From Candidatus Latescibacterota bacterium (lineage in GTDB: Bacteria > Latescibacterota > UBA2968 > UBA8231): a stretch of 64,000 bases of DNA. The notes beneath the pieces are model-generated. The model did not search any database. It was given only the letters and a program-made list of their open reading frames with translations, and was not told where the DNA came from. A program made the translations under genes and the position numbers. Below, one piece after another: positions 21,947-39,338 of the stretch. Location: the NCBI GenBank assembly GCA_965217585.1, contig OZ244561.1:544001-608000 (forward strand), read 5' to 3'. The stretch's first letter is position 1; each line of letters starts with the position of its first letter.

Positions 21947-21980
21947 ATAGCCGACTCTTAGTAAAGGAGAACAAAACGCA

Positions 21981-22664: not shown

Positions 22665-22729
22665 GTTTGCGGCATCGGGGCTGACGTCTGAACCTGATAG
22701 GGAATTCGATAAGGGGTTTAGTCCAACCT

Positions 22730-24316
22730 TCACCGGACCAGCATCAACCGGTGCGTCCGCGTTTCCCCGCCGGCCTTCAACACGGCCCAATACGCCCCGC
22801 TGGCCGCGCGCTCACCGCTCCAGTGCGCCAAGTGCTTCCCGGCCGCGAGCCGCTCCGCCACCAAAAGGGCCAGACGCTGGCCCAAGGCATTGTATATCGC
22901 CAACTCGACGTCCGCTTCCCTTGCCAAGCGAAAGGGCAGGTTCACCGCGCTGTTGGCCGGGTTTGGATAAGCCGGTGCCAAGTCGCTGGCCCCGGCCCGC
23001 TCCTCTGCCTGCATGGCTACGACTGTAGGCGTAACATACCGGGCCGCGAGGGCAAAATCTCCGCCCGTCGGCGAGGCTCTGCCGACAATGACTGCCACGC
23101 TATCTATCGCCGCGGCCTGCACCTGCCCTGTGTTGTCCGCGCTAAGTTCCATCGCTATCAGCTCGCCGCGCTGGCCATGCATGGCGTACACCCACACGGC
23201 ATAGCGCCCCTCGGCCGCGCCGGCGAAATCAACGGCTACATCGCCCTCCGAGCGAATAACCACATTGGCCGCGCCCCATTGGTTGCCAACCTCGCCGGCC
23301 AGTTCCGCGAAAGGCACCTCGGGCGCGGCAACCGCAGCGGCGCGGCGGCCGCGCAGAGCCTCGTACCCAGTCGCATAGTTGGCCGCGATCCACAAGCGCC
23401 ACGCACCCGCGTAGTCCTCGACCCAGTTTTGGTTTTTGAAGGCGTCGTCAATGCCCAGAATGCCGTTGCGCGGCTCAGCGACGATTTGGCGAATCAGCCC
23501 CGGACCATAGCGCTCGGCCAAAAACGAGGCGAACAGATAGGTTTTGCCGTAGCTCGCCGAATTGAACACCCAGAGCGTTAGATCGCGGCTCGGATCGGCG
23601 AGAAAATCCGGCACCATGTTCGGATCGGCCTCGGGAAAACCCACCAGTTCCTCGGCGTACCCAGAAAGCCCTTCGTCGATCCATCTCTCCTCGTCGGAAT
23701 CGCGGCCCCAATGGATTAGATGCTGGAATTCGTGCGCTAAGGTTGCGTGGGCGAGATAGGCGCTGAAGGCCACCTTGCTCGCGTCGAGGTAAATCGTATC
23801 GCGCCGCAATTCGGGTTGCGCCCGCTCGTACAGTTCATCGTCGAAATAGCCGATCACGCGCTCGTCGGGAATGTCCAAAACCAGGATAAAGATGCGGGGA
23901 TCGCCGTCCTCATCGGCAGGCTCGCCAAAGGCATCGACCGCTATTTCAAATATCCCGCGCTCGGGATCGGCCGGGGTCGCCGCGTCAAAAAGCGCGCCCA
24001 GCTTATCCACATCTGGCTGGGCTGCGATAATGTCCCACTGGCTTTCCTCGACGAAGATATAGCAGTGCGTCCCCTTGTAGCGACAGGTAGCCAACTTGAG
24101 CACGGGTTCAAGCGGTGCGTAAAAGGCGAGCTGAGTCCCCACTTCAATGGGGCCTAGCTCTTGACTTGCGCCGACTGCCTTGGCGGCTGGCGAGGGGAAA
24201 GAAGCGCGGTGCTGTTCGAGCCAGCGCGTCCCGCATATCCGCTCTTCGGCTGCGGCCGCCAGCGGCAGCGAGAGCATCCACGCGGCTAAGGCAACCCGCG
24301 GAAAAAAGCAGGCCAT
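22730..24316 (-). CDS. Secreted zinc metallopeptidase (M30-like) with T9SS-type/FlgD C-terminal domain
   Basis: Signal peptide, CGT propeptide-like motif, HEFQHLIH...WIDEGLS, C-terminal AYPNPAN...IYNALGQ...SGAY. Confidence 0.82.
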   Translation of the reverse strand: MACFFPRVALAAWMLSLPLAAAAEERICGTRWLEQHRASFPSPAAKAVGASQELGPIEVGTQLAFYAPLEPVLKLATCRYKGTHCYIFVEESQWDIIAAQPDVDKLGALFDAATPADPERGIFEIAVDAFGEPADEDGDPRIFILVLDIPDERVIGYFDDELYERAQPELRRDTIYLDASKVAFSAYLAHATLAHEFQHLIHWGRDSDEERWIDEGLSGYAEELVGFPEADPNMVPDFLADPSRDLTLWVFNSASYGKTYLFASFLAERYGPGLIRQIVAEPRNGILGIDDAFKNQNWVEDYAGAWRLWIAANYATGYEALRGRRAAAVAAPEVPFAELAGEVGNQWGAANVVIRSEGDVAVDFAGAAEGRYAVWVYAMHGQRGELIAMELSADNTGQVQAAAIDSVAVIVGRASPTGGDFALAARYVTPTVVAMQAEERAGASDLAPAYPNPANSAVNLPFRLAREADVELAIYNALGQRLALLVAERLAAGKHLAHWSGERAASGAYWAVLKAGGETRTHRLMLVR

Positions 24317-24921
24317 CAGTAGAAATGCCGCACCAAGAAGAAAGACGCTCCCGCAGGCCCCACCGCCACCTTGGGCGCGAAGCCAGTCTGCGCTTGATCC
24401 GCGCCGGCCACCCGTGCCGCATGGATGGCAGCCACGAGGTGATTAGCGACTACCAATCCCGTCATATAGAGCGCCTGCCGCTGCGCGTGCTGGCTCGCAT
24501 TGCGCAACTCTCGATAGCGCTGGCGCGACTCGTCGCGATCCCATTCCCAGAAGAAGTCCGCGGCCACAGGATAGAGCGCAGCCTCCGGGCCGTCCTTGTA
24601 GCGGGCGAACTGGTTGTGCTCCAGCCGACTCGCATAAAATCCCAAGTCGTCGAAATAGGCGCGCCCCTTGCCCTCGGGCCGCGCACCTGCGCGTTCCGCC
24701 GCATACGCCTGGTACCGATCGCGGCGCACCTGACCCAGCCACTCAAAACCCCAATAGCCGCCCCAAAGCGCCAACTCAGCGGCCAAAAAGCTACCGCCGC
24801 CGCCTCGGGCGTACTTCTGCCCCCAACCGGGCACTAGCAAGGAGCGCCAAAACGCTCCTTGGGACTTCCCGGCCTCAGCCACGCCGGGCAGCAACAAAAC
24901 CAACGCAATCCATCGCCACAT
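24316..24921 (-). CDS. Hypothetical exported/membrane protein (DUF5683-like)
   Basis: Signal peptide, RSLLVPGWGQKY, NHLVAAIHAAR; paralog of the next gene. Confidence 0.65.
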   Translation of the reverse strand: MWRWIALVLLLPGVAEAGKSQGAFWRSLLVPGWGQKYARGGGGSFLAAELALWGGYWGFEWLGQVRRDRYQAYAAERAGARPEGKGRAYFDDLGFYASRLEHNQFARYKDGPEAALYPVAADFFWEWDRDESRQRYRELRNASQHAQRQALYMTGLVVANHLVAAIHAARVAGADQAQTGFAPKVAVGPAGASFFLVRHFY

Positions 24922-24925
24922 CAGC

Positions 24926-25867
24926 TCAATCCAACGGTTTGTACGCCACGAACATGGGTACGCGCGCCCGCACCCAAGGCTGCATGACTAACGCGAAGCG
25001 CGTCCGCCGCCGCAGGGCCGCTTCGTCGGCACCCGCAGCGCGCGCCCGCGCCACCCGCGCCGCGTCAATGGCGCTGATAACGTGGTTGATCAGGATGACC
25101 CCGCTTACCGTGGAGGCTCGCTTGAGAAAGCGATTGCTCTCGTCGCGGTCGTCTTCGTAGCGGAGCCGCCGCTCGGAATGGAAATTTTCGACCGAATCGA
25201 CTTCGGTCGGCACAGCGGCATTGCCAGTACTGCCACCGCGCCTCAGATCATCCCAACCGGCGACAAATTGGTCGTATTTGCCAATCAACTCGTAGTATTG
25301 CTGAATCTGGCTCGGCGCGCACCCGCCAAAAACCTCACTCCTATCTAGCGCACTCAGTTTTTCCCCCGCCTGTAGTTTCCCTTCTCTTCTCGCCTCAACA
25401 ATGTACCCGTGGACCTCGCTACTACAAGGCAGCGCGTGCGTGATTGACGAATTGTTCGAGATCGTCGATTCACGCCAAAGAATGTAGTCTTCCGGATCCC
25501 AGTGCTCGTCGGCTACTGCCCGGAACTCTTCCACTACATCGTTGCCCTTGCCCTTCCAAGCCGCCCACATGCCTACCAGCGCGGCTTCGGCCCCGAAAAA
25601 AGCTAACGCCCGCTTCTTCGACCCCGCATACCACTCGCCCAACCCCGGCACCAGCGCGGAAAGCAAAAACGCCCGCTTGGACGACTTGCCCTTGCGCGTC
25701 TCTGTGCGCGGCATCGGTGCCGGCTCAGGATCAGCATCGCCTTCCACCGCCCGCAATCCCACCAAAAACGCCTGTCCCTCCTCGCTCAAAATACTCGGCA
25801 ATCCCTCGGCCCGGACGCTAGCGGCAGTTAACACGGCAACCACCAGCGCGATTCCTGTTCTCGTCAT
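24926..25867 (-). CDS. Hypothetical exported/membrane protein (DUF5683-like)
   Basis: Signal peptide, LSALVPGLGEWY, QQYYELIGKYDQFVAGWDD, NHVISAIDAAR; AAGGAG RBS; TATAAT at 25918-25913. Confidence 0.7.
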   Translation of the reverse strand: MTRTGIALVVAVLTAASVRAEGLPSILSEEGQAFLVGLRAVEGDADPEPAPMPRTETRKGKSSKRAFLLSALVPGLGEWYAGSKKRALAFFGAEAALVGMWAAWKGKGNDVVEEFRAVADEHWDPEDYILWRESTISNNSSITHALPCSSEVHGYIVEARREGKLQAGEKLSALDRSEVFGGCAPSQIQQYYELIGKYDQFVAGWDDLRRGGSTGNAAVPTEVDSVENFHSERRLRYEDDRDESNRFLKRASTVSGVILINHVISAIDAARVARARAAGADEAALRRRTRFALVMQPWVRARVPMFVAYKPLD

Positions 25868-25920
25868 GTTTGCTCCTTTCCATTGCGGCAGTACCCCAAA
25901 GCGCGACCGGCTATTATACC

Positions 25921-26127
25921 CTAATCGCCTTCACATTCGAGATGATTTCTCAACACATTCTTGACGTAGGTCGTCGTCTCTTCTCCCACTTTTCCTGCTG
26001 TCTCTTTCAATTGGTCATACTCGGTCACTTCCTCACCTACCCAGAGAACATCCAGCCTGCGAATCTCTCGCATTGCTACATGACTATAGGATTCTGGAAA
26101 CGCCCAATAGCATGACCGGCAGTTGCT
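25921..26127 (-). pseudogene. C-terminal remnant of a probable HNH-type restriction endonuclease
   Basis: Manual translation: ...NCRSCYWAFPESYSHVAMREIRRLDVLWVGEEVTEYDQLKETAGKVGEETTTYVKNVLRNHLECEGD*; no plausible full-length start (in-frame stop at 26164-66); overlaps the MTase tail. Confidence 0.6.
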
Positions 26128-27044
26128 GATTCCAAAGCGAGCTCCTGCTGAATTTGCGGTATTCTATCACGTCTCTGCCCATCGTTCAAACGCTCCACCA
26201 AAGCCGGCGAAAGATACAGAGATTCGACGGTCTCGCTCTTGTCACCCAGGAGCGTGGCTTGGCTTGAGCGTCCGGCGCTAATGTGCAAATGAGTGAGGGA
26301 AAGCGAGCGGGGAAGCGGCTTGCCGTGACTTTTTTCGCCGGTTTTCCCGTCGTAGCTCGCCATGTAAGAAAGCCCCCGGTCGTTCATGGCTTGGAGCGCG
26401 TCTGCGAACTCGGCATAGCTCAGCCCGCTGCAATACCTGTGATCTCTCGTAAAGGACGTGCCCTGATAGGGTGGGTCCATGTAAATGAGGTCCTCTTTCG
26501 CGGCCTCCGCGACCACTGCGCGAAAATCGACTGCGGAAAGCGTGGTTTTTCCGACGAGCAGTGCGTGAACGCCGAGTATCTGGCGCTGCATAAGTATGGG
26601 ACGCATGCCCGACCGTCGGTTGTCCGCGCTTTGATTGAACAGGCCCTCGGCACTGTACCGCACCGAGCCTTTTACTATGCGCGCCAGCAGATAGAGCAAA
26701 TGATGAGGCCGATGTGCAGCATTGAACTTATCGCGGATGCCGAGGAAGAAGGTCTTTTTATCCGGGTGCTGTTCCGTCCACAGCCGCTCGTAGTTTTTGC
26801 TAAGCTCATTTGGCCGCTGCAAAATTTCTTCCCATAGCGCCATCAACGGTTCGTTCAAATCATTGAGCCAAAATCGCTTTGCGAGCCCGTGTGCGGCCGC
26901 GGCAAGAGAAATGGCACCAGACCCGCAAAAAGGCTCAATGAGGCAATCGACATCGCGCGGAAAATGCGTGAGGATATGCCGTGCAATGCCGCGCTTACTA
27001 CCCTGATAAGGAAATGGATGCGGAATTGCCATGTGCTGCAACAT
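26076..27044 (-). CDS. N6-adenine DNA methyltransferase (D12/Dam class)
   Basis: PYQGSKR, EPFCGSGA (motif I), DPPY (motif IV); lower GC than flanks. Confidence 0.9.
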   Translation of the reverse strand: MLQHMAIPHPFPYQGSKRGIARHILTHFPRDVDCLIEPFCGSGAISLAAAAHGLAKRFWLNDLNEPLMALWEEILQRPNELSKNYERLWTEQHPDKKTFFLGIRDKFNAAHRPHHLLYLLARIVKGSVRYSAEGLFNQSADNRRSGMRPILMQRQILGVHALLVGKTTLSAVDFRAVVAEAAKEDLIYMDPPYQGTSFTRDHRYCSGLSYAEFADALQAMNDRGLSYMASYDGKTGEKSHGKPLPRSLSLTHLHISAGRSSQATLLGDKSETVESLYLSPALVERLNDGQRRDRIPQIQQELALESATAGHAIGRFQNPIVM

Positions 27045-27046
27045 CT

Positions 27047-27966
27047 CTACTGCCTCTGCATCACGACAATGCGATTCGAATTCGTTCCGCGCTCGTTGTT
27101 GTCAACGCCCCACATATTCGAGGTCTTGGTAAACGTCTGTTCGTTGATTACGATGCAGACCGGTTTCCATGCCGTCTCTTGCGCAACCTCGGCGACTACG
27201 CGATCGAGCAACAGCGATCCCCGCCGGATTTCGCCCACCTCAAATGCAAACACCCCGCCAGGGCGCGCAATCGCGGCTACGCTTTCCAACACGCCGTGCA
27301 CCAGCGCCTTCCATTCTGCGAGCTTGCGAGTCTGCGTGATGCGAATTGCATCGGGATCGACGCCGACGAACCAACAGCGCATCCAGTTGTCCTTTTTGTA
27401 GTTCACGATGTCCATGAAGGGCGGCGAGGTCGCCGCGAGCGCCACCCGAGGACCGTCGTATTCAAAGGGCGCATCGACCGCTTGTTGAAAAAACCTCGGC
27501 TGCGCCCCTTGGGTGCCTGCGCCTCCGCATCCCGCAAAAGCGCACGCGTCTTGCGCAGGATCAACTGCGCGACATCGCGGTACTCGGGCCGCTGGCCGCG
27601 CCGCGCGGCGACCTCGGACAGGGTCGGCGGATCCAACCGCGCTTCCACAAGAACGCGGGACAGGGGATTGACGTCGTTGCCTAGCGCGTCCCGTCCGAGC
27701 AAGACCGCTTCGAGCAACGTCGTCCCGCGCCCCATAAACGGGTCGAACACCACGTCGCCGGGGTCCGTCAGCCGCTCGATGAAAAAGCGCGGCAACTGCG
27801 GCTTAAAACACGCCCGATAGGAAACCTCGTGCAGCGAGTGCGCGGCGCGTTGCTTGGACGTCCAGAACTCATTGGCGAATACGGGAATGCCGTCGCGTTC
27901 TGCAACGACTGTCTCCTTGCCGTAGCGCCGCCATTGTTCAAGCTCGCGTCTGAACTCGTCGAGCAC
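27047..27966 (-). pseudogene. Frameshifted, probably internally deleted amino-DNA methyltransferase
   Basis: DPFMGRGTT (motif I) in ORF 27403-28014 and TSPPF (motif IV) in ORF 27047-27445 are in different frames; adding one base at the A6 run (27488-27493) joins them. Confidence 0.75.
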
Positions 27967-28040
27967 CAGACATCCCTTACCAATAAAAGGAACCTGGCGT
28001 TGCACTTGTTGCAATATACACCCCTAACGATCTGCGTCCC

Positions 28041-31000
28041 CTACAAATACCCGAACAACACCGTAAAATACGACTTCCACCGCCCCTTATATTCTACCTC
28101 GTCAATCCCATACGCCACATCCACCTGCACCCGCGTCGGCACGCTGTAATAAGAAATCAAGTCAAAGCGCAACTGCCCCCCCACATCCCGCAGCGGGCCG
28201 TCGCGGCCATACCGTTCGTTCCACTCGCCTATATTCTGATCCCAAGCCTTGCCCATACTGGTGTACACCGCGCCATAGACTTTGTCGAAATATAGCTGCG
28301 CAACGCGTTTGCCCATATCCGGCAGCAGGGGAAAGCGCAGCGTCGCCGTGCCCATCAGGGCCTTGCGCCCCTCGATGCTGTAAAAAGTATAGCCCTTCAT
28401 AAAGTTGAGGCCGCCGAGGCGGTAGTCGAAGAAATCGCCGACCCGCGACGTGTCGTTCACTGCGTCGCTGTCGATCCAGCCGCCGTACAGCCGCAGGCCC
28501 AAGCGGGTATTGGCGGGCATGGCCATGTATTCCTTCCAATCGACGGTAAACTGATTGTAAAAGAGCTTGATGTAATTCTCGTCGATAAAAGACGCCTGCT
28601 CGTTAAAGCCGTCGATAAAATAGTTGAACATCCGGTCGTAGCGCGCGTAGAGCTGGCGGCCCACAGGGCTTATATCGCGGTCCCGCCGCCGCGCAATCAG
28701 CTCCATCCGATAGGTCAACCCCAAGCCAAAGCCGTTGAGATAGGTATAGCCAAAAGGCCGCTGGGCGGTGCGCTCGAAACCGACCTGTCCGTCGCCTTTG
28801 CAGACGAGGCAGTCGCTCTCGACGCTGGCGTCGTAGCGGTCGTACGTGGCCGAGGCCGTCAGCTCCCCATGGCGACCCAATTTGCCGCGCACCCCTGCGC
28901 TGAGCTGGCTCAAGCTATAGTTGACGGCGTTGACAATGATCGTCCGCGCTTCCGAGCTATCGCCGCGAGCCGAGTGCCGGCGCTGGTTGAATACCTGTAA
29001 AAAGAAAGTGGGGCGGAATCCCTTGAACTCGTATATGGCGAATAGATCGCGGTCGGCGTTGGTCGGCGCAATGGCACCCCCGACGAATACGCTCTGGCGG
29101 TTGAGCACATCGCCGGCACCGAGGTACGCGCCCGCCTTGAACTGCCCCTCGTCCATGAACAGCCTCGGCAGAATCCCAGTCTTGAGGAAGTCGATGCCAT
29201 ACGCTTGGGGCTCGCCCGGCAACGCGGGTGCCGACGTGCCACGCCAATCCAGCGGCATGTCTTGGGAAAACCACGCCTCTTCAGCCGCAACCAGCGTCCC
29301 CTCGTCCTGCAACTGGCGAATCTCAAAGCCAGCCGCCGTATAAGCCGTAAAGACGAGCTCGCCCTCCGAGCCGACCGATGGGCTAAATGCGCCGCCGATA
29401 GTATTAGTTATCTGCCGCAGCGCGAGCGTTTCCAAATTGAGGGCATAAATATTGAAAATGCCGCTGAAATCCGAGGCAAAGACGATCTCCGTGCCGTCCG
29501 CGCTCCACGCTGGGTCCCGGTCCGTGCCGGGTGTGGCAATGGCGAGGTCGAATGCCCCTTCGGCCAGCAGGGGTGTTGCGGCAGCAGCGTCCGCGTCCAG
29601 TTGCACCACGGCGAGGTCGCGCTGTCCCTCGCGCGAGATTGCAAACGCCAGCTTGCGTCCGTCGGGCGAAAAGCGCGGCGTGTAGAGCTGGGTGCCGTCC
29701 GCGAAGTGGGTTAGATAGCGCAGTCCCGTGCCGTCGGCCCGCATCATCGCCAAGTTGTTGCTGGTGTCCTTGTTTTGCACGAAGACGATCCACTCGCCAT
29801 CGGGCGAATAGGTCGGATACAACGCACGCAGCCCGCGGGTCAGCCGCTTGACGCGCGGCGTCTCCGGCGCCGTGCCGCTAACCATGGCCGGCACCAACCA
29901 CAGCATATTGCGCCAAAAACTAGGGCCAGCGGCAGCGGAATTCCACTCGTAGATATCTGCCTGCCGCGAACCGTATTTGTCCGCTCGGTCAATGCGCGAA
30001 AAGAGCAGCCTGCTCCCGTCCGGCGACCAATCCACGGTCGAAGCCGCCGCTGGGAACGCTGCGACTTCCTCTTCGCCGGTAGCGAGGTCGCGGACGATCA
30101 AACCGTGTGGGTAGTGGTGCCGCTTGCGCGTCGATAGATACGCCAATTGCTCGCCATTGGGCGCGAGCCGCGGCCGCAGATTGGAAAAGCCGACATCCAC
30201 GATCCGCTCGCCCTCGCGTAGCGGCCCCAACGCCGCTACCTGCGCCTGATAGCCCTGCCGCAGGGACTCGATCCACTCGCCGTATAGCTCGTCCGCGCTC
30301 TTGCCCAAGACCTTTTTGCACGCCCCGTCAATGGCGAGGGTATGCCATTGCGACGCGGCCCGGTACAGCGCGGCGATTTTTTCTTCGCCGTATGTCTCGG
30401 CGATGTAGCGCACCAAGCCAAAACCGTGGTCGTACACGTATTCGTTGCCAAAGCCCTGCTTGCCAAAGACGCCCATCTGGTCGAAGGATAGCTGCTCGTC
30501 CGCCAGCACCAAGGAGCGGAGCACCATGTCGCGGTTGGCATCCCAGCGGTCGTGCCCCGTAGTCGCAGTCCCGTACTGGGCCGCGCCCTCGGCCAGCCAC
30601 ATCGGCACCACCGTGCCCATCACCGGATAGGAAGCAATGACGTCTGGATAGCCGATGAGAATATCCGGCCGGTTTTTCTCCCGCTGGTAGCCAAAGTACT
30701 GCAAGTAGAGCGCGGGGACGCGCTGCACGCCTTTGCGCGCCGCCCCTAGCGAAACGATGTGGGCAAATTCGTGGGTTATTACGTTGCGCAGCCAGTCTGA
30801 ACTACCGCGCAAGTCGAAGTCGTGGTCGAGCGACGTGGCCCAAATCTCAATGGTGTCTTGATAGAAAAAAGCCGCGCCATTGGCGTAGTCGTCGTGGTCC
30901 TTGAGCACAATCCGCACGCGCCCGTCGGGCGCGTACCCATATAGCTCGGTAATGGACGCGTACGCGGCTTCGGCAATGCGCGCCGCCCGCGCCGCCGCCC

Positions 31001-31157
31001 CGGCCAGTCCCTCGTGGTAGAAAATGCGGAAGTGCTCGGTCTCCACCACCTGCCACGCGAGTTCCGGGTGGTTTTGGGCAAAGGACGCGCTCGTCCAGCC
31101 GAGTACTAGACAAAATACGCACAGGCCAGCCAGCAGCAGGGTCGTCAGTTTCCCCAT
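28041..31157 (-). CDS. Outer-membrane protein: zincin domain + TolB-like (PD40) beta-propeller + Omp85/BamA-like barrel
   Basis: Signal peptide, HEFAH...WLAEG, multiple P.WSPDG repeats, C-terminal LGG...KGY loop and aromatic-rich end (YFTVLFGYL). Confidence 0.78.
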   Translation of the reverse strand: MGKLTTLLLAGLCVFCLVLGWTSASFAQNHPELAWQVVETEHFRIFYHEGLAGAAARAARIAEAAYASITELYGYAPDGRVRIVLKDHDDYANGAAFFYQDTIEIWATSLDHDFDLRGSSDWLRNVITHEFAHIVSLGAARKGVQRVPALYLQYFGYQREKNRPDILIGYPDVIASYPVMGTVVPMWLAEGAAQYGTATTGHDRWDANRDMVLRSLVLADEQLSFDQMGVFGKQGFGNEYVYDHGFGLVRYIAETYGEEKIAALYRAASQWHTLAIDGACKKVLGKSADELYGEWIESLRQGYQAQVAALGPLREGERIVDVGFSNLRPRLAPNGEQLAYLSTRKRHHYPHGLIVRDLATGEEEVAAFPAAASTVDWSPDGSRLLFSRIDRADKYGSRQADIYEWNSAAAGPSFWRNMLWLVPAMVSGTAPETPRVKRLTRGLRALYPTYSPDGEWIVFVQNKDTSNNLAMMRADGTGLRYLTHFADGTQLYTPRFSPDGRKLAFAISREGQRDLAVVQLDADAAAATPLLAEGAFDLAIATPGTDRDPAWSADGTEIVFASDFSGIFNIYALNLETLALRQITNTIGGAFSPSVGSEGELVFTAYTAAGFEIRQLQDEGTLVAAEEAWFSQDMPLDWRGTSAPALPGEPQAYGIDFLKTGILPRLFMDEGQFKAGAYLGAGDVLNRQSVFVGGAIAPTNADRDLFAIYEFKGFRPTFFLQVFNQRRHSARGDSSEARTIIVNAVNYSLSQLSAGVRGKLGRHGELTASATYDRYDASVESDCLVCKGDGQVGFERTAQRPFGYTYLNGFGLGLTYRMELIARRRDRDISPVGRQLYARYDRMFNYFIDGFNEQASFIDENYIKLFYNQFTVDWKEYMAMPANTRLGLRLYGGWIDSDAVNDTSRVGDFFDYRLGGLNFMKGYTFYSIEGRKALMGTATLRFPLLPDMGKRVAQLYFDKVYGAVYTSMGKAWDQNIGEWNERYGRDGPLRDVGGQLRFDLISYYSVPTRVQVDVAYGIDEVEYKGRWKSYFTVLFGYL

Positions 31158-31237
31158 AGAAGAGTTCTCCTCAGCTCGTAATACAATGATGCCTCTAGTA
31201 CTAAGGCGATCTCACTGCTGCAAAGGCACTCCTCTCG
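31119..31237 (-). repeat. Copy B of duplicated leader + signal-peptide segment
   Basis: Near-identical to 35079-35208 (GAGAGGAGTGCCTTTG.AGCAGTGAGATCGCCTTA...GAGGCATCATT...AGCTGAGGAG...ATG.GGAAACTGACGACCCTGCTGCT). Confidence 0.9.
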
Positions 31238-31258
31238 ACCAGACAAAACGCCAACCCC

Positions 31259-34000
31259 TCACTGACTCACCGCCATTTTGACCACGGCTTCTCCTCGCCG
31301 CTCGTCGTCGCCGTGCGCGATCAATCGGCATAGATACAGGCCGCTCGCATAGCCTTCCACCGACCAAGTAACTTCGCGCTCACCGGCTGCCAAACCGTTG
31401 CTGCGGTGCTGCCAAACGCGCCCGCCCAACGCATCAAATACCTCCAATTCGATGCGCCCGGCCGCGCTCAGCGCAAAGCGCAAATGCGCCTCTTCATCGG
31501 GACCGACTGGATTGGGATAGCAATAGACCCGGCCTAGCAAGGCCGCCTCTGGCTCTACGACGGGCCGACCAGCAACCAGCGCAGCCCGCGACCCGGCCGC
31601 GTCGGCACCGGCCTGCGGCCAATGGGCCGGCCCCCCGGCGTACTGCGCCGCCACCTTAAGCAGATCCCACGCATACACGGCCGTGCCATCCAAAGCCGCT
31701 AGCGCCAGGCGGCCATCGCCATCTAAGTCCAATACCACCGGCGACGCCGTCGGGGGGGCGGCCATTAGCAGGGGGAAGTCCGGCAAGAGCCGCCCATCGT
31801 CGTCCACGCCGAAAATTCCGCTGTGGCCGGCGACGAATATCTCCTGCTTGCCGTCGGCATCCACATCGCAAAGCACCGGCTCGAAGACGATATCTCCAAC
31901 CTCGGCAAAGCGCGGCAAGGCCGCGGGGAAGTCGGCGTGGCGCAATCCGTCAGCTCGCAGGGCGTGTATCGCTCCATTCCGCGCAAGCAAAACCACTTCC
32001 AACAGGCCATCGCCGTCCAAATCGCCCAGGACCGGCGGCGCGGCTAGGGAATCGCCTAACTCGGCGCTATGAGATCCGATCTCGACCTGTCCGCCGGTCG
32101 TGGCGAAGACCCATTCGACTTGGCCGTCGCCGTCCAAATCGCCTGTCGCCGGGGGTAACGAGGCCGCAGCCACCGGCGGCCTTTGCTCCTTTAACTCGCC
32201 GCTTATGGCATCTACCACGTAGATCTGTTCCGCTCCGACGAGCAGCAGTTCAGCCTCTGCGCCCGCGCTGAAACTCGCGTCCAACGGCACCTCGTCCAGC
32301 ACAAGCCGCCACCGCGGTTGGTCGGCCCCGGTGTCCCACGCGCTGATCTCTGCGTCGCGCCGCACAAAAACCTCGGGCCGGCCATCGCCGTCGCCGTCGC
32401 CAGCAGCCAGCAGCCGCGCCCTTGGTACTTGCCACGCCGCCACGCCATCTCCGGTCGCATAGCTGACTCCACCCCCGGCCTCAAAGAGCAATTCATCCAC
32501 TCCGTCGCCGTCCAAATCCGCAGCTTGCAGCCGGCCATCACCCGGCAAATCCCGTGGCCAACCCGGGCGGGCGCGCCCAAAGCGTATGGCCACCTGCATG
32601 GTATCGCCGAGTGCGGAAAGCACTTCGATCTCAATGCCGGTTTCCCACTCTCGGTTGCTGCGCGAGTCAGGTTGAGTCGTCGGGCCGAACAGCGTTTGTC
32701 CGCCGACAAAGAACGGATCGTCGGGCCATCCATCGACTTGCAACTCCCACGCACGGCGCGGATCACCAATGTCGCGGTACCCGTCGGCCTCTTCCAAGGC
32801 AATCCCCTTCCAGTGGAGCTGATTGTTCGCGGCACTGGGGTCCGCAGCGCGAGCCATCACGCCCTCGTCTACATGCCATATCAGCACCCCCGACCCTGGG
32901 ACAAAGGCGTCGTATTCCTCCATCGCCACCCACACGCCCTCGTCTATGGTGACCTGATCGAGATCGATCCACATCGTCTCTTCGTCTTCGCCCTCCACAA
33001 CGCCGCGCTGCCCACGCTGTTGCCTGTTCTCCAGCAAGAAGTATTCGCGTGCGTCAATGGGTATGCGCACTGCCTTGGGGAGATCGCCGCTGCGGTCGGT
33101 CGCCAGCAACGATAGTACAGTGTCGCGCCGCACCACCACCGGCTCAATCCACCCTAGCTGCATCTTGCTCCAAGCCATGGGATGCGGCGGCGCGAAGCCG
33201 CGTACCCACGCGAGGCTATCCGTCCGCACGTAGCCCCAAGCGTTGGCCCCCACGTCCATCAGGCTCCAGCTACCTAGGGCCGGCAGGCCGTCGGCAAAAT
33301 TGGACAACCCAGGCAGGCCCAACTGATGGCCAAAGAACTTGGCAAGCAAGCCATTGAGGCCAGCCCGGCCGTTGAGGCTAGGCGACTCCGGCAGGATCCA
33401 CGCCTCATCGATCGCTGCGTCGCCCACGGTCAGCGGACCGCCGTTAAAGAGCGCAAAATCGCCCTCGGATAGGAAAACCGAGCGAATATCGTTCAGCTCG
33501 CCGGTCTCGTGGCCGATCCCGGCATGGAACACGAGGAAGCTGTTGAATTCATCCAAACGCGGGCCGTCGGGATCAGCCAGCGCGGCATGAAGGGCATCGC
33601 TCACCAGCTCGATCCACTTCACACCGATCTCCTCAGTCGTGCGTCCGTTGCCGTAGTGGAGCATAGATTGGGGAAGCGTGTACGCCTGCCGAGCGGCGCG
33701 GGGGAACACCTCGGCGGAAATCGCCACCTGACCGGCAGAAACGACCTCGTAATAGCGCGCCAGCGCGGTCAGATGCCGCTCGAAATAAGCGCGGTCGTGC
33801 GGCGGCACGTCGTAGGGAAGCGCGTAGTCCTCGGCCGCTTCCTCTACCGAGCGCAAGTCAAAAGCCCCGACGCCAGTCGTCGTCAGCTCATCGGGATTTT
33901 CGCGCGGAAAATCGACGCGCAAGGCCAAGATTCGCCACTTGGCGTCGGCCGCGGTGGTCGCTGACAACAGCAGTGAGAAGCAGAAGCCTAAGAGGAGCAA
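31259..34000 (-). CDS. M6 (InhA)-like protein with FG-GAP repeats and T9SS-type C-terminal domain; zinc motif degenerate
   Basis: LALRVDF, FHAG.G, WSLMD.G, WSKMQLGW, EYFLLENR, GVLIWHVDE; several DLDGDG repeats; YCYPNP...SGLYL CTD; start uncertain. Confidence 0.8.
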   Translation of the reverse strand: MLLLGFCFSLLLSATTAADAKWRILALRVDFPRENPDELTTTGVGAFDLRSVEEAAEDYALPYDVPPHDRAYFERHLTALARYYEVVSAGQVAISAEVFPRAARQAYTLPQSMLHYGNGRTTEEIGVKWIELVSDALHAALADPDGPRLDEFNSFLVFHAGIGHETGELNDIRSVFLSEGDFALFNGGPLTVGDAAIDEAWILPESPSLNGRAGLNGLLAKFFGHQLGLPGLSNFADGLPALGSWSLMDVGANAWGYVRTDSLAWVRGFAPPHPMAWSKMQLGWIEPVVVRRDTVLSLLATDRSGDLPKAVRIPIDAREYFLLENRQQRGQRGVVEGEDEETMWIDLDQVTIDEGVWVAMEEYDAFVPGSGVLIWHVDEGVMARAADPSAANNQLHWKGIALEEADGYRDIGDPRRAWELQVDGWPDDPFFVGGQTLFGPTTQPDSRSNREWETGIEIEVLSALGDTMQVAIRFGRARPGWPRDLPGDGRLQAADLDGDGVDELLFEAGGGVSYATGDGVAAWQVPRARLLAAGDGDGDGRPEVFVRRDAEISAWDTGADQPRWRLVLDEVPLDASFSAGAEAELLLVGAEQIYVVDAISGELKEQRPPVAAASLPPATGDLDGDGQVEWVFATTGGQVEIGSHSAELGDSLAAPPVLGDLDGDGLLEVVLLARNGAIHALRADGLRHADFPAALPRFAEVGDIVFEPVLCDVDADGKQEIFVAGHSGIFGVDDDGRLLPDFPLLMAAPPTASPVVLDLDGDGRLALAALDGTAVYAWDLLKVAAQYAGGPAHWPQAGADAAGSRAALVAGRPVVEPEAALLGRVYCYPNPVGPDEEAHLRFALSAAGRIELEVFDALGGRVWQHRSNGLAAGEREVTWSVEGYASGLYLCRLIAHGDDERRGEAVVKMAVSQ

Positions 34001-34064
34001 GGGGGCTAAATCGCAGCGTCGCCGCTCGGTGCGGCAACAGAACCAGCGTCCGATTGGAACACCC

Positions 34065-35117
34065 TCAGAAAATGATGTTCAGGGAAATTGGCGTATTGTC
34101 TCCCACCACCGCGTCTTCGCTGCCGATTATATACGCCACATCAAACTGGAAGCGATTGTATTTTAGGCCAACGCCAAAGGTCTTGGAATGTACCTCGCCG
34201 TCGCTGTCCCGCGAAAGGCCCGCACGCAACGCGATAAACGCCTCACCTTCGTGCGCGGAAAGCCCGTATTGGTATTCGCCGCCCACGTGCAGATCCATCT
34301 CCTTGAACTCGTTGCTCAAGCCCTCGTCGGCCCATGCCGTGGCCAAGTTGCTGACAAAAGACCCATCGGCAATCAGAGGTTTGTACAGGTCAAAAGAGAG
34401 CAGCAGGTCGTTGTATTGGGTATCCATCACGTCGTAGGCCACCCCGACGACGATATGTTGGGGCAGCGGGTCGGCCTGTTCGGCGTCGATATAGGCGATC
34501 TTGGGGCCTAGGTTGCGCAGGGCCGCGCCAAAGCTGAGGCTGGAGGTGGGCTTCCATAAAAATCCCAGATCCGCGGCAAAGCTGCTACCCACGCCCCGGC
34601 CCCGCTCAATGCCGGCCCCCGCATCGGCTAAGTTGCTGCGGATGAACTTCAAGCCGATGCCAGCGGACGTATTGTCGCCGATATCCGCCCCGTAGGCCAC
34701 AGACATAGCTACGTCATAGCTGCGGAAGGTGCCTTGTTGGTTGCCGCGTTCGTCTGTGCGGATCTGCTCGCCTAGATTTAGCAGCGCGACGTTGAGGCCG
34801 AAGTTGCCCCACCCCTCCACAGGCATGGAATAGGCCAGAAACTCGTAGGACAAGTCGTCAGCCAGCTTCGGCAGCCACGCGGTGTGGGAGAAGTGCATGT
34901 TTCTTTTTTGCTGCCCGACAAGCGCGGCTGGGTTGAAGTAGCTGGCCGTGGCGTCATCGGCCACCGCCACATAGGATTCGCCCATGGCAACGGCGCGGGA
35001 ACCCGGATTGATCAACAAAAAAAGCGGAGCACTTCGGCTCTCGGGCGTGGCCCGAACCCCATTGGGCAATGCGCCGACACAAAGGCCGACTAGCAGCAGG
35101 GTCGTCAGTTTCCTCAT
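34065..35117 (-). CDS. porV: T9SS outer-membrane shuttle PorV
   Basis: FLLINPGSRAVAMGE.YVAVADDATASYFNPA, SHTAWLP.LA.D, NLGPKI.Y, DPLP; directly downstream of porU. Confidence 0.85.
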   Translation of the reverse strand: MRKLTTLLLVGLCVGALPNGVRATPESRSAPLFLLINPGSRAVAMGESYVAVADDATASYFNPAALVGQQKRNMHFSHTAWLPKLADDLSYEFLAYSMPVEGWGNFGLNVALLNLGEQIRTDERGNQQGTFRSYDVAMSVAYGADIGDNTSAGIGLKFIRSNLADAGAGIERGRGVGSSFAADLGFLWKPTSSLSFGAALRNLGPKIAYIDAEQADPLPQHIVVGVAYDVMDTQYNDLLLSFDLYKPLIADGSFVSNLATAWADEGLSNEFKEMDLHVGGEYQYGLSAHEGEAFIALRAGLSRDSDGEVHSKTFGVGLKYNRFQFDVAYIIGSEDAVVGDNTPISLNIIF

Positions 35118-35208
35118 AGCGGAGTCCTCCTCAGCTAAGAATAAAAGTATAAAAATGATGCCTCCTAAGTATTAAGGCGATCTCACTGCTACAAAGGCAC
35201 TCCTCTCG
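35079..35208 (-). repeat. Copy V of duplicated leader + signal-peptide segment
   Basis: Near-identical to 31119-31237, with an extra U-rich insert. Confidence 0.9.
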
Positions 35209-35214
35209 CAACGC

Positions 35215-38200
35215 TCACTTGGCAACCTGCAAGACGGCGCGGCGCGCGACCGCAGCGCCACTTTCCCGTTCGGCTTCTATTCGGTATAAATACGAGCCGT
35301 TGGCCAAGCTCGGCGGCGGCGTCCAAGGCACTTGGTTGTAGCCAGCGTGTGTCTGTCCGTCTAGCTGGTCTATCAGCCGACCGGCCAGCGAAAAAACCTC
35401 TATCTGCACAGCGCGCATGTCGTCTTCTAGCTCATACGTGAAGTAGCCGCTATCGCGCATGGGATTCGGGTAAAACAGGACATTGGCAAGGCCCGCGTCG
35501 CCGGCGGCGTCCCCGACCGCGACCGACACCGTTGCACGCGACGAATTGTTGAAGTTGTCCCAGGCCTTCAGGCGGATCTCGTGTTTGCCCGCTTCCAGCT
35601 CGGGCAGGGGAAATTCAATGACCCCCTGACGGTAGTCCCCGCCTTGCACGCTGTAAAGCTCCGTCAATGTGAAGAACTGGCCGTCGATGGCCAGCTCGAT
35701 TTCGTGCCCGGTCTCTCCGGTGATGTTGATGCCGCTGGGATCTGCAATCGAGGCCAACAACACCGTCTGCCGCGGAATCGTGGTGCCTTTGGCCCCCTCG
35801 AAGCGCAGGGAAATTTCCGGCCCCTCCACGTCCGCTTCCACGCCTGCGGCCGTGCCCGCTAGCACCAATCCTTCGGCCGAGCCAAAGGCCGCCGGGCTGT
35901 CATCGCTCCAGACGTAGGCGCTGATGCGGCCGTTCTTCCCGCCGTAGGTAATGTCTTTAGGGACCCGAAACGCGGCGCGGAAGCGGCCCTCGGCTACTGG
36001 AAAGCGGCCGCGAAAGATGGGGGCACCGGTCTGCTGGTAAGTCAAGCCCTCCAAGTCGCTCTCTTCGCTCGAATCAAATGCCTGCAACCACACTTGGCCC
36101 TCATAGGTGGTGGCCGGCGCACCAGCCGCGTCGAGGACTTGGCCGGCCAGAGCCACTTCGCCTAGGGCGTGGAGCGAATCGGCCACGTCGATCTGCACCT
36201 GAAAGCGCGGCATGGCCAAGCGCGTCGCCGGGTCGCCGAAGAGCGTATAGCGCTGAATGTTGCGGAATGTACGGAATGCAGTGGGGCCACTGGGGGAATA
36301 CAGCGGCAGCAGTAATTGCTTAGCCTCGAAGAGGGCCAGCCCAATAGGCACGTGCTCCCGTCCGGTGTGGTACATCTGCCGGTAGAACTGGTTGGCCAAC
36401 TCGACATTGCTGTCGTGATATCCCACTCGGGCCGCGCAAATCATGCCGATCACGCCCCCGTCTTCCTTCTTCAAGAGCGCCTCGGGGATGGAGATGCGCA
36501 CTGGATCGTCGAACACCCCAACTTGACTGGCGGCCGTGAAAAACAAGGGCAGGCGACCGCCATTTCTGACATCGTCCAAATCGCGGGAAAGCAAGAACAT
36601 CCACTCGTGGGCCAAGCGGTCGTAGGTGCCGTGCCCCAAATAGGTCACAATAAGCGCGCCCTTGTTGAGGAGCCGGATGAACGCGTCCCGCGCCCGCGGT
36701 TTCTTCCCTCCCTCTAGGGGGAATTGGGCGATGTAGAGCTTGGTCACGTCCAACGCCTCAGGCATGACGTTTTGGGCCATGTATTCGCTGTCGTTGAGAA
36801 AGTATTTCTCGACATTAAGCGGCTTGTCTCGATTGAATAAATCATCCGCAACCAGCGCCACGCGGCTCTGCCAAGGCCCCAATTCAGGCGCGCGGTCGTA
36901 GGCGATGATTTTGTCGGCGAGCGCGTCGGCCTCAGCCGCGGTCTGCACCGTCAGCCGACCAATAGCCATGTCGGGGAACAAATCGCCGCCGACCACGCGC
37001 GTGTACCACTCGTCGTACGTGCTGTCGCCGTCTTGGAAGGCCGGGATCCAATTGCCCTGACTGAGGGCCGAATTGTTCTTGTAATCGTACGAGCCATCGC
37101 CGACCAAGACCACGAATAGGGGAGCGGGATCCCAGTGCTCGGCCGCATAGGCGAGAAAATTGCGGATCGCCGCTGGATCCAAAAGTCCGCCGGAAAATTC
37201 GTCGTAGATGTCTTGTACGTCGATGGCCACCGTCCGCAGGGGCGGACCGAAGCGGTCGTCTTCAGCCCGCCATTGCGCCAAGCGCTCGGCCGCGGCGCGG
37301 AAATCGCGGTGGTAAATCGCCACCCAATCGGCCCCCCAGCCCCCAGTCGTCAAATCGCCGGGCAAGTCAAGCTCGACCCGCACTGGTCGCTTCCAAGTCG
37401 CCGGACCGCCGACTATGTACTGACGCGGCACCTCCCCGGGTCGATCCTGAAAAGTTACCGTCCCGGCTTGCGCGTCGTACTCGAAGTCCACGACCTCGGC
37501 CAAGCCCGCAGTAACCTCAAAGACGCGCGGCTGCTCGTCGGCAAAACCAGCGAGACGGAATTGAGTGGTGCCCGTCAGCGGATAGGTGAAGATCAGCTCG
37601 CCGCGCTCGGCGACAAAGCCGCGGCTGTACTCCACCTCGTACCAGTCTAAGCGGGACGGATTACCGGAGTGAACGATCCCCAAGTGGTTCAGCCCCTCCT
37701 GCGCCCCCATCGGTGCCCACAGCGTATCGGATGCAACGGGCGTCTGGCGAGGTTCGTCTGGGATTGCAAAAGCCTCTCTTCCGATGGTCTCTTCGTTCCA
37801 GCGCACCTCAAACCGCGGCCGCGTCCCGGGTACCCCGATAAAGCCCAAACGCACGGCTACCGGCTCGGGCACGGCCTGCCGCACCACCACCGGAAAATTG
37901 CGCGCATTGCCGCGAAAGTCCTCCCAGTACCAAGTGTAGCCAGACTTGATGCTATAAAGCTGGTTGAGAACGAACTGCTCGGCTTCCTCGTGGACCCGCA
38001 CCCGATAGCTCGTGGGCTGCTGCGGGTCGGACGCCACCAGAGCACCACTCCTTTGCTCGGCCCGCCGCCCCTCGCCTCCACCGCCAAAACCCAGCCAGTA
38101 CGCGTTCTCGCGCGTGTAGAGGTTGTGCCGATATTGAAACGAGCGGCTAGTCTGGACGTATTCCCAGCGGCTGACCGGCTCGGCCCAAAACAAGACGAAG

Positions 38201-38940
38201 TCGTCCGCGTCCAAACGGCCATCGCCCCCATCTTCTACGACCAAGCCCACTTCTGGCATGGCTTGGGGTGGACCTACCTGACTGATGGACAAGGCTTTAC
38301 CACCTCCGTAGTGCAGGCGCAAACTCGCCGGATCGATGTCGTCGAGCGATACCCCGGCGGCCTCTAAGTCGGCACCCGATATCCTGTACATCCCCTCTTC
38401 CGAGACCAAGATCCGCAGCCAAGTCCCTTCTTGCAACGCGGCCTTGCGCGCTGGCCGCCGCTTGGGTGGCAATCGCCAGTTCCTAGCTTGCTCGGGATTG
38501 ACGAGCACCCCTCGGTAGAATGCTTCGCCCCAAGGGTCGGCAACGCGGGTGCCGCCACTGCCGGTCACGTGCAGGTCAACGACGATGCGATCATACAGGG
38601 TCCGCGTCCCATCTGCTTCGACGCGCGGGGCAAACGCCACCGGAACGACGCGCTGGCGACGCGCAAAACCACTCTCGCCGAGGAAGACCGGCTCGGGCGT
38701 AGACGCGTCGTCTTCAGCGGCGCGATCCGTCCGCGCCACGTGGGCTTCGATCAACTCCAAGCGAACCTGTCCGTCGATTGGGACGCCGATCAAGGCACCG
38801 CGCCCCCGCTCCAATTCTTGGCCCTCGGGGAGCCAAACCAACCGCAGGCGCTGTGGCGTCTGTTCGCTCACGCGCAATTCCGCCATGGCCGCACTCCCGC
38901 AAAAAAGCGCGAGCGCCCAAAAGCAGCATTTGAATCTCAT
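35215..38940 (-). CDS. porU: PorU-like gingipain-clan (C25) sortase with C-terminal CTD
   Basis: EEGMYRI, NLYTRENAYWL, IYDEFSGG..DP.AIRNFL, GDGSYDYKN, IGRL, ADD, YLGHG, LFGDPA, GINITG..GH, LKAWDNFNN, FYPNP...NGSYLY. Confidence 0.87.
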   Translation of the reverse strand: MRFKCCFWALALFCGSAAMAELRVSEQTPQRLRLVWLPEGQELERGRGALIGVPIDGQVRLELIEAHVARTDRAAEDDASTPEPVFLGESGFARRQRVVPVAFAPRVEADGTRTLYDRIVVDLHVTGSGGTRVADPWGEAFYRGVLVNPEQARNWRLPPKRRPARKAALQEGTWLRILVSEEGMYRISGADLEAAGVSLDDIDPASLRLHYGGGKALSISQVGPPQAMPEVGLVVEDGGDGRLDADDFVLFWAEPVSRWEYVQTSRSFQYRHNLYTRENAYWLGFGGGGEGRRAEQRSGALVASDPQQPTSYRVRVHEEAEQFVLNQLYSIKSGYTWYWEDFRGNARNFPVVVRQAVPEPVAVRLGFIGVPGTRPRFEVRWNEETIGREAFAIPDEPRQTPVASDTLWAPMGAQEGLNHLGIVHSGNPSRLDWYEVEYSRGFVAERGELIFTYPLTGTTQFRLAGFADEQPRVFEVTAGLAEVVDFEYDAQAGTVTFQDRPGEVPRQYIVGGPATWKRPVRVELDLPGDLTTGGWGADWVAIYHRDFRAAAERLAQWRAEDDRFGPPLRTVAIDVQDIYDEFSGGLLDPAAIRNFLAYAAEHWDPAPLFVVLVGDGSYDYKNNSALSQGNWIPAFQDGDSTYDEWYTRVVGGDLFPDMAIGRLTVQTAAEADALADKIIAYDRAPELGPWQSRVALVADDLFNRDKPLNVEKYFLNDSEYMAQNVMPEALDVTKLYIAQFPLEGGKKPRARDAFIRLLNKGALIVTYLGHGTYDRLAHEWMFLLSRDLDDVRNGGRLPLFFTAASQVGVFDDPVRISIPEALLKKEDGGVIGMICAARVGYHDSNVELANQFYRQMYHTGREHVPIGLALFEAKQLLLPLYSPSGPTAFRTFRNIQRYTLFGDPATRLAMPRFQVQIDVADSLHALGEVALAGQVLDAAGAPATTYEGQVWLQAFDSSEESDLEGLTYQQTGAPIFRGRFPVAEGRFRAAFRVPKDITYGGKNGRISAYVWSDDSPAAFGSAEGLVLAGTAAGVEADVEGPEISLRFEGAKGTTIPRQTVLLASIADPSGINITGETGHEIELAIDGQFFTLTELYSVQGGDYRQGVIEFPLPELEAGKHEIRLKAWDNFNNSSRATVSVAVGDAAGDAGLANVLFYPNPMRDSGYFTYELEDDMRAVQIEVFSLAGRLIDQLDGQTHAGYNQVPWTPPPSLANGSYLYRIEAERESGAAVARRAVLQVAK

Positions 38941-39031
38941 AAAATGGTATAGGTGGGATTGGTCATGTGGTCATGGCGATTGGCACTTTTAAGGTCATTC
39001 CAAGCCCCCTTTTTGTCAAGGGCATCTCACC

Positions 39032-39060
39032 TTGACTTATCGACTCAGCACCGCTATGTT
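39032..39060 (+). promoter_or_regulatory. sigma70 promoter of rpmB, back-to-back with a TTGACA facing porU
   Basis: TTGACT (39032-37), 17 bp, TATGTT (39055-60); minus-strand TTGACA at 39019-39014. Confidence 0.55.
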
Positions 39061-39087
39061 TTACTATTTCTTAACAGGGAGGCACTC

Positions 39088-39315: not shown

Positions 39316-39338
39316 GCGGGCAAAAGCCCTCCGCGCAC

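Follow-up and report, generated by a model that had tools for sequence, protein, structure and literature searches.

Work on secretion systems of type IX (T9SS) rests almost wholly on Bacteroidota, in which the PorLM motor and the PorKN ring are treated as core components. Within the excerpted text of the survey by Abby et al. (2016), Bacteroidetes were the sole group with complete T9SSs, which 60 of 97 genomes had. A second described assembly close to the locus reported here is the Flavobacterium johnsoniae machinery for β-barrel assembly (BAM), which, in the sections of its description drawn on throughout this text (PMC12611786), consists of the Omp85 protein BamA together with BamD, BamG, a BamH/BamM canopy at the surface and BamP; BamG, a 14-strand barrel of the FadL family, binds BamA, and a loop of the periplasmic BamP enters the BamA seam.

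Here, we describe an operon from the genome of an uncultured Candidatus Latescibacterota bacterium in which homologues of the T9SS proteins PorU and PorV are encoded beside an inactivated M6-like protease and a fusion of a zincin, a PD40/TolB-like propeller and an Omp85-type barrel (hereafter the barrel fusion). The window analysed is a stretch of 64,000 nucleotides, positions 544001–608000 of a single-contig assembly (contig OZ244561.1; 7.32 Mb, ~62% G+C, 94.6% complete and 6.9% contaminated), and the operon comprises ten open reading frames (ORFs) at 22730–38940, all encoded by the minus strand in head-to-tail order. Gene identities in the window come from Pfam and NCBIfam hidden Markov model (HMM) scans with a listing threshold of E ≤ 0.01 (Table 1); an initial annotation of this DNA had set out the same genes, and every one of its ORFs was recovered in place and on the minus strand. 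Judging from gene order, we read the locus, with a probability of about 0.55, as the outer-membrane operon of a reduced T9SS, a PorV-centred processing or attachment module whose mechanism we propose below.

We compared gene order in two sets of loci. The first comprises 80 Latescibacterota loci taken from the 80 best genome records with a relative of the barrel fusion (41–94% identity to the window protein). These records are titled Latescibacterota or Latescibacteria, some metagenome-assembled genomes being labelled Gemmatimonadetes or Handelsmanbacteria, and the titles of the close relatives uphold the earlier suggestion of a T9SS-related locus outside Bacteroidota. The second set comprises 80 metagenome loci retrieved with an alignment of distant barrel-fusion homologues, which are 24–35% identical among themselves and about 30–41% identical to the window protein; some of them are nearest to a Fidelibacter/Marinimicrobia protein cluster. 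Profiles built from the Latescibacterota loci were run on both sets, and loci with sufficient flanking sequence were counted. Ten loci flagged by a positional filter were inspected by eye, and seven of these proved to be frame-boundary artefacts of long stop-to-stop frames; the counts below are those after inspection, the uncorrected filter giving lower values (for example, 66/74 for the M6-like gene).

The Latescibacterota loci, 80 in all, read in the order PorU, PorV, M6-like protein, barrel fusion, a slot that holds methyltransferases in the window, p313, p201 and an HExxH zincin that ends in a type A C-terminal domain (CTD; hereafter the HExxH-CTD protein). Upstream of the barrel fusion, the M6-like gene was found in 74/74 Latescibacterota loci (2 kb away in L102) and 68/68 metagenome loci, PorV in 64/64 and 46/46, and PorU in 43/56 and 10/36. 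Downstream, p313 was found in 65/67 and 55/55, p201 in 64/66 and 5/53, and the HExxH-CTD gene in 60/63 and 0/44. True exceptions to the order among Latescibacterota loci are L045, L099 and L102. From this constant order in both sets we conclude that PorV, the M6-like protein, the barrel fusion and p313 make up the conserved core, and that PorU, p201 and the HExxH-CTD protein are lineage-specific additions. The pairing of the barrel fusion with porU and porV that had been suggested earlier thus holds throughout for porV and in part for porU.

In a survey of 121 sampled Latescibacterota genomes, 52 of them high-quality, the barrel fusion was present in 118 and in all 52 of the high-quality set. 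PorU, PorV, the M6-like gene and the barrel fusion are contiguous in seven of eight cassette stretches from other families of the phylum, the eighth (G003) having PorU on another contig. Named homologues of the fusion come from Fidelibacter multiformis, Marinimicrobia, Zixiibacteriota, KSB1, Calditrichaeota, Zhuqueibacterota and LCP-89, with no Bacteroidota among the named members of the barrel family.

To describe the barrel fusion we used an AlphaFold2 (AF2) model built from 33 sequences, with a predicted local distance difference test (pLDDT) of 75.5 and a predicted template-modelling score (pTM) of 0.77. The model consists of a helical/strand zincin (residues ~36–310), a propeller (~317–616) and about 16 long strands (661–1035). 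Since only ~45 residues (about 617–660) lie between the propeller and the first strand of the model, the fusion lacks a POTRA domain, and none was found in Pfam or NCBIfam scans. A Foldseek search with the model returned TolB as the top match (E 2e-9) and also TamA (8us3; E 5.6e-7, 387 aligned columns), and PF01103 is among the precomputed matches of some homologues; as modelled, the C-terminal part of the fusion is an Omp85-type 16-strand barrel. The profile of the fusion, searched against solved structures, matched only TolB-type and S9/tricorn-type propellers. Within the barrel, an L6-like (M)KGY motif has its G922 and Y923 invariant in the 33-sequence alignment. The N-terminal domain carries a gluzincin site, HEFAH at residues 129–133 and AEG at 189–191, of which H129, E130, H133 and E190 are invariant in the same alignment, and the HExxH motif is kept in 50/50 sequences. 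Canonical Omp85 proteins are encoded separately in the genome, in an 810-aa frame (169 bits) and a 723-aa frame (86 bits).

Further members of the fusion family lie outside the operon. A 1062-aa paralogue is encoded at 1572581–1575769 (+) (L198:6581–9769), with an HELTH motif and 177 bits to the barrel profile, and a distant PorV-like ORF of 527 aa stands 1.5 kb from it on the other strand. Deep-branching members of the phylum have another, divergent fusion-like ORF (174–222 bits) beyond p201 (L186:15392–18487, L188:1584–3974 and L191:2848–6000), at the position that the HExxH-CTD gene holds in the clade of the window and in G009.

The initial annotation had noted that no sprA or porK/L/M/N is recognisable in the window, which the HMM scans bear out, and had offered the barrel fusion as a possible translocon. 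We searched the six-frame translated genome with CTD, SprA and Gld profiles. SprA is encoded elsewhere: model TIGR04189 matched with 483.5 and 116.5 bits, or 604.8 bits in one 2153-aa frame (cut-off 200), and the gene is a 2145-aa ORF at 3.68 Mb, ~3.1 Mb from the locus among housekeeping neighbours. SprA scores over the cut-off in 115/121 genomes of the phylum. Because SprA is present in this genome and in most of the phylum, a translocon role of the barrel fusion is unlikely. A processing-protease role, which the initial annotation had offered as well, is a candidate one; the zincin motif is invariant and, in this clade, PorU is without the cysteine nucleophile. Candidate cargo is abundant, as 129 of the 150 scored matches to the CTD model TIGR04183 exceed the cut-off, among 210 candidates of which 60 were left unscored.

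The motor and ring components gave a different picture. Models of GldL and GldM (TIGR03513, TIGR03517, PF12081 and PF12080) had no match in the genome, in a search whose controls included no T9SS genome and whose sensitivity is unproven. The GldM model TIGR03517 was over its cut-off in 0/121 genomes of the phylum, and the GldN models (TIGR03523 and PF19841) had no match in this genome, both again with no T9SS-positive control. For GldK there were only FGE-sulfatase-domain matches of at most 80 bits (cut-off 350), with no gldLMN adjoining; those at 1.306 Mb, considered as GldK candidates, have TPR, FG-GAP and CHU_C proteins as neighbours and were rejected. No full canonical T9SS was therefore found, in line with the earlier expectation, the GldL/M/N models being silent, the GldK matches domain-level and the controls free of T9SS. 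NF033708, first taken as a PorZ model, is in fact a model of ChiA-type CTDs; it had no match, and no search for PorZ was made.

PorU, the first gene of the operon, carries a type A CTD of its own; the genome has no other full-length PorU match and no further C25 domain. Aligned to Porphyromonas gingivalis PorU (6za2), it keeps the histidine of the GHG motif (His770), and Ser805, in the motif TAASQVG, stands at the cysteine of ATCDF, leaving the His-Cys dyad incomplete. The serine occupies this position in 52/52 PorU ORFs of the Latescibacterota loci, within an invariant motif TAAS(Q/A)(V/I/T)G. Of ten canonical-length PorU ORFs that other families of the phylum contributed, nine have cysteine and one (G009) has serine, and PorU ORFs of the metagenome loci read A-x-T-C in 10/11, the eleventh not being resolved by the motif pattern. 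As cysteine prevails in these other-family and metagenome ORFs, the sequences indicate that the Cys-to-Ser change in PorU is derived and clade-specific, and that it is strictly conserved within the clade. We considered and rejected a PorU2 identity: the sole genome match to NF052324 is the window PorU itself, at 145 bits and below the cut-off of 450. In the phylum survey the PorU model matched at E ≤ 1e-40 in 116/121 genomes and over its cut-off in 71/121.

The M6-like protein has likewise lost its active site, reading FFGHQLGLPG at the expected HExxH position. The initial annotation had already described both proteins as altered at their active sites, which read Ser805 for cysteine in PorU and GHQLG for HExxH in the M6-like protein. 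HExxH is lost in 47/48 Latescibacterota and 59/60 metagenome orthologues of the M6-like protein, and [YFW]PNP is found near the C-terminus in 60/60 of the metagenome orthologues. The protein matches NF052323, a model of M6-like inactivated metalloproteases, below the equivalog cut-off of 600, as does its L097 orthologue at 362 bits, and a sequence search against solved structures gave no match at E ≤ 0.1. The three CTDs claimed earlier, in PorU, the M6-like protein and the HExxH-CTD protein, all show the YPNP...G.Y pattern. In a six-frame search, those of PorU (27.1 bits) and the HExxH-CTD protein (34.5 bits) exceed the cut-off of 23; that of the M6-like protein is marginally below it at 22.4 bits, and its L097 orthologue reaches 35.3 bits.

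The HExxH-CTD protein keeps its motif in 36/36 orthologues. Its former label, M30-like, is not supported, as there was no Peptidase_M30 match at E ≤ 0.01 and the best match was MXAN_6640_HExxH at 38 bits, below the cut-off of 140; it is probably a T9SS cargo peptidase that joined the operon in this phylum. The two remaining proteins, p313 and p201, had been described as paralogous and exported, and in this they stand as distant paralogues (BLASTP E 1e-8) with a signal peptide each; they are better labelled DUF5683-like, on weak matches of 17–20 bits. The model of DUF5683 (PF18935, cut-off 26.7) was missed by p201 at 16.8 bits and by L097 orthologues at 19.1 and 20.5 bits, p313 having no match, and the domain occurs in 25–30% of the members of p313's Atlas neighbours, which we take as a lead only. 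Both proteins share the motifs S..PG.GE.Y, QQYYELIGKYDQF..GWDD and NH..SA.DA. In an AF2 model (pLDDT 82), p313 forms a long hairpin of helices and a small hairpin at its C-terminus. Fold searches with this model returned at best E 0.3 (Foldseek against the PDB) and, on generic helical hairpins, Z 6.8 (VIA-align), and they assign it to no known fold. A complex prediction of barrel-fusion residues 317–1038 with p313 residues 49–313 scored 0.00, which gives no verdict either way.

The cassette PorV, which also matches PF19572 at 67 bits, is the best PorV-family match in the genome, which holds seven PorV/PorQ-family matches over cut-off, two of them in one frame. Both PorV and PorU of the operon fit the canonical models better than those of PorV2 and PorU2. 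A second PorV/PorQ-family gene of 323 aa lies in the window at 17037–18008 (+), between a glycerate-kinase-like gene and era; it scores 101 bits with PorV_fam (cut-off 90), and its top named match is 'PorV2' at 150 bits, below 325. Weak matches to the window PorV occur in L074, L078 and L080 beyond panC, on the opposite strand. Elsewhere in the genome, PorV-family genes at 1047402–1048717 and 1643772–1645134 (167 and 143 bits) each stand directly beside an ORF ending in a type A CTD, and these two may form dedicated cargo-shuttle pairs.

We looked for expression in RNA libraries. Two metatranscriptome libraries labelled 'sponge metagenome' (X18 and X19) contain contigs that align to porU and porV at 0–1 mismatches over 220–400 bases (window 34572–38922); operon parts that lack such near-identical contigs are not thereby shown to be silent. 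Contigs of a relative at 90–95% identity, from libraries X16 and X17, span the whole operon, and one of them bridges the M6-like and barrel-fusion genes. These contigs hint that the operon is transcribed, with the reservation that they are assembled contigs and that DNA carry-over is possible. A scan of 21900–39400 for promoters and terminators found no more sites than in shuffled sequence.

Table 1. Genes of the operon; positions count from the first nucleotide of the window, and the position of each type A CTD is approximate.
Feature	Position	Strand	Best family evidence	Type A CTD
porU, C25-type T9SS sortase homologue, 1241 aa	35215-38940	-	NF033707 T9SS_sortase 627 bits (cut-off 420); Peptidase_C25 262 bits	35260-35472
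porV, PorV/PorQ-family outer-membrane barrel, 350 aa	34065-35117	-	NF033709 PorV_fam 239 bits (cut-off 90)	
M6-like pseudo-protease with FG-GAP and CTD, 913 aa	31259-34000	-	NF052323 286 bits (below 600); FG-GAP_3 55 bits	31313-31519
Barrel fusion: zincin, PD40/TolB-like propeller and Omp85-type barrel (as modelled), 1038 aa	28041-31157	-	Peptidase_MA_2 28.4 bits (below 32.4); PD40 81 bits	
N4/N6 DNA methyltransferase remnant, two overlapping ORFs	27403-28014, 27047-27445	-	N6_N4_Mtase 50 bits	
Dam-type (D12 class) adenine methyltransferase, apparently intact	26076-27044	-	MethyltransfD12 115 bits	
p313, signal-peptide protein, DUF5683-like, 313 aa	24926-25867	-	no family over cut-off	
p201, shorter p313 paralogue, 201 aa	24316-24921	-	DUF5683 16.8 bits (below 26.7)	
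HExxH zincin (HEFQH) with CTD, 528 aa	22730-24316	-	TIGR04183 30.6 bits (cut-off 23)	22742-22972

The methyltransferase genes between the barrel fusion and p313, which the initial annotation had listed as a restriction-modification relic, are a variable insert outside the system and absent in some close relatives. The N4/N6 methyltransferase remnant shows an internal deletion of ~267 bp relative to an intact 414-aa ORF in L038; this gene is missing from many relatives, and the Dam-type gene is present or absent among close ones. One RNA-library contig of a relative skips the methyltransferase stretch. The gap is an insertion hot spot among relatives (L024–L058), is empty at 69 bp in L031, and elsewhere holds a Dam-type methyltransferase alone, or N4/N6 and Dam-type genes with a 255-aa winged helix-turn-helix ORF. 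The insert of the window is partly decayed and lacks that 255-aa ORF, and no restriction enzyme was recognised in it. Housekeeping genes flank the operon (rpmB, panC, folB, folK, purD, era, secDF and ileS). Further along, window positions 56000–60000 have a G+C content of 50–56%, against ~62% elsewhere, and are possibly an acquired island; among the genes of this stretch are a KAP-family P-loop NTPase (57525–59720) and an apolipoprotein-like repeat protein (56630–57268).

In the mechanism that we propose, type A CTD cargo would cross the outer membrane through SprA, and PorV would receive its CTD. Ser-PorU, whether or not it is catalytic, would join PorV through PorU's own CTD. PorV, the M6-like protein, the barrel fusion and the DUF5683-like protein would form one PorV-centred outer-membrane assembly, in which the dead M6-like/FG-GAP protein may be held at the surface by its own CTD, in the way that PorQ holds PorZ. 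The Omp85 barrel would anchor the active gluzincin on the periplasmic side, gated by the TolB-like propeller, and the peptidase would trim or clear CTD cargo or CTD remnants, with p313 and p201 as putative small envelope partners. The joining of the four core proteins in a complex, the membrane side of the zincin and its substrate are all parts of this proposal.

A wider version of the proposal reaches beyond this phylum and is correspondingly doubtful: Latescibacterota and several further phyla of the Fibrobacteres, Chlorobi and Bacteroidetes (FCB) group, Bacteroidota excepted, could run a T9SS that dispenses with PorKLMN, the core module taking over work of PorKLMN, PorU or PorZ. In such a system the Omp85-anchored zincin would remove or clear CTDs, and in the clade of the window PorU might thereby have been freed for its Cys-to-Ser change, whether it now acts as a scaffold or as a transpeptidase of the serine type.

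Several observations weigh against a PorV-centred T9SS module. Three families of the phylum (f2–f4) keep the cassette with no canonical PorU nearby, and their operon begins at PorV; the sole PorU-like gene of these families encodes a ~1900-aa protein that matches positions 5–737 only of the PorU model. From these families, and from the presence of porU in so few metagenome loci, it follows that the core is tied to PorV and not to the sortase. PorV itself scores 161 bits with the equivalog model NF033710, below the cut-off of 250, and it could be a PorV-like barrel with a different role. The barrel fusion of the window has no PF01103 match at E ≤ 0.01, its Peptidase_MA_2 score of 28.4 bits falls short of the Pfam cut-off of 32.4, and its 1062-aa paralogue is encoded with no cassette around it. 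The absence of GldL/M/N is read from Bacteroidota-built HMMs with no responding positive control.

The ~1900-aa PorU-like protein of f2–f4 retains the cysteine and scores 350 bits, below 420. Partial PorU-like proteins of ~1850–1950 aa with cysteine occur in many genomes of the phylum (for example at L192:1246–6960, in G039), and none was seen in the window genome. A first look at PorU-model candidates, mostly CTD-like stretches, counted 10–29 in f2–f4 against 30–259 in f1; this unvalidated proxy hints that PorU loss is accompanied by a smaller CTD repertoire.

The strongest rival takes the Omp85 barrel, a FadL/PorV-family barrel docked on it, a surface protein and a small periplasmic protein as a BAM-like assembly machine. 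This would be a specialised insertase, or a vestibule in which large proteins of the outer membrane or surface fold, SprA or PorV included, and it would do no cargo processing. We think this unlikely, even with the F. johnsoniae complex as a precedent for its composition and with the reading of WD40-Omp85 proteins as BamA-BamB-like fusions in the excerpted account of Heinz and Lithgow (2014; PMC4104836). The near-universal presence of the fusion in the phylum would suit such a machine, as would the L6-like (M)KGY motif, presumed equivalent to VRGF/Y. The invariant HExxH...E points instead to proteolysis, however, and the model lacks a POTRA domain, the genome encodes separate canonical Omp85 proteins of 810 and 723 aa, and the barrel supposed to dock on the fusion scores as a member of the PorV/PorQ family.

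Two further explanations find less room. The fusion might be a type Vd-like autotransporter after the manner of PlpD, its Omp85 barrel exporting its own zincin and propeller as a surface nutrient-acquiring protease or sheddase beside the M6-like protein. PlpD carries a POTRA domain, and the linker at ~617–660 is too short for one of that type; a folded zincin and propeller of ~600 aa would also be a large passenger. These points make autotransport improbable, even though a zincin at the surface would share its side of the membrane with the operon's CTD proteins and PlpD, in which an Omp85 protein has an enzyme as its N-terminal passenger, does bring a lipolytic domain to the surface, as described in the excerpt of Heinz and Lithgow (PMC4104836). 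Nor do we put much weight on the operon being a set of conserved neighbours with no shared mechanism, merely porUV and unrelated genes, in which operon inertia would have kept the fusion, a general housekeeping protease of the envelope, next to porV. The housekeeping flanks (rpmB, panC, folBK and purD) would fit this, as would the tolerance of insertions, among them the methyltransferases, a 451-aa gene in L097 and 2 kb in L102. However, the four-gene order is constant down to ~30% identity and across lineages named as different phyla, the flanks differ between loci, and the genes around the core (porU, p201 and the HExxH gene) are present in some loci and missing from others. A PorV-centred module of a reduced T9SS accordingly remains our preferred reading.

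Latescibacterota have SprA, PorV, a PorU and more than 100 CTD genes per genome, no detectable motor or ring, and an extra four-gene module common to other candidate phyla. Should the motor truly be missing, the way in which export through SprA is powered and completed could be tested directly. The fusion would give the Omp85 family a possible new job, that of an outer-membrane-anchored, propeller-gated metallopeptidase, and PorU, with its conserved Cys-to-Ser change, offers a natural experiment on sortase mechanism. Since a homologue is recorded in the cultured Fidelibacter multiformis, bench tests are conceivable. A literature search found no paper on the cassette, on a Ser-type PorU, on T9SS in Latescibacterota or on PorU2/PorV2 systems, supplementary tables of the cited papers lying outside its coverage, and the zincin-PD40-Omp85 fusion may be an undescribed accessory of the T9SS pathway.

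Each of four known systems resembles the locus in part. The systems behind NF052323–NF052325 (an M6-like protein with putative PorU2 and PorV2) share with it an M6-like protein that fits NF052323 in its own N-terminal half and in its CTD and has lost HExxH; the scores of 286–362 bits stay below 600, and PorU and PorV are nearer to the canonical models than to those of PorU2 and PorV2. The WD40-Omp85 subgroup, compared by its description in the excerpt of Heinz and Lithgow (2014, PMC4104836), likewise joins an N-terminal TolB-like propeller to an Omp85 barrel with no POTRA, whereas a zincin and a link to porV or T9SS go unmentioned in that text. By architecture, the F. johnsoniae BAM (PMC12611786) also combines an Omp85 protein, a 14-strand barrel, surface partners and a small periplasmic partner; in contrast to it, the Omp85 protein here has a peptidase and no POTRA, the barrel is of the PorV/PorQ family, and the surface protein is anchored by a CTD and is not a lipoprotein. 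The attachment complex of P. gingivalis (PorU-PorV, PorZ-PorQ and Sov/SprA) is matched by adjacent porU and porV genes, by a PorU with its own CTD, by a second non-enzyme with a CTD and a propeller (the M6-like/FG-GAP protein) in the place expected of a PorZ-like partner, and, in the genome at large, by SprA and numerous genes for type A CTDs. Unlike the P. gingivalis system, the one described here belongs to a Latescibacterota host, shows no PorK/L/M/N to Bacteroidota HMMs and has serine at the nucleophile position of PorU, and it holds two unrelated proteins, the zincin-PD40-Omp85 fusion and the DUF5683-like one, as fixed members of the cluster.

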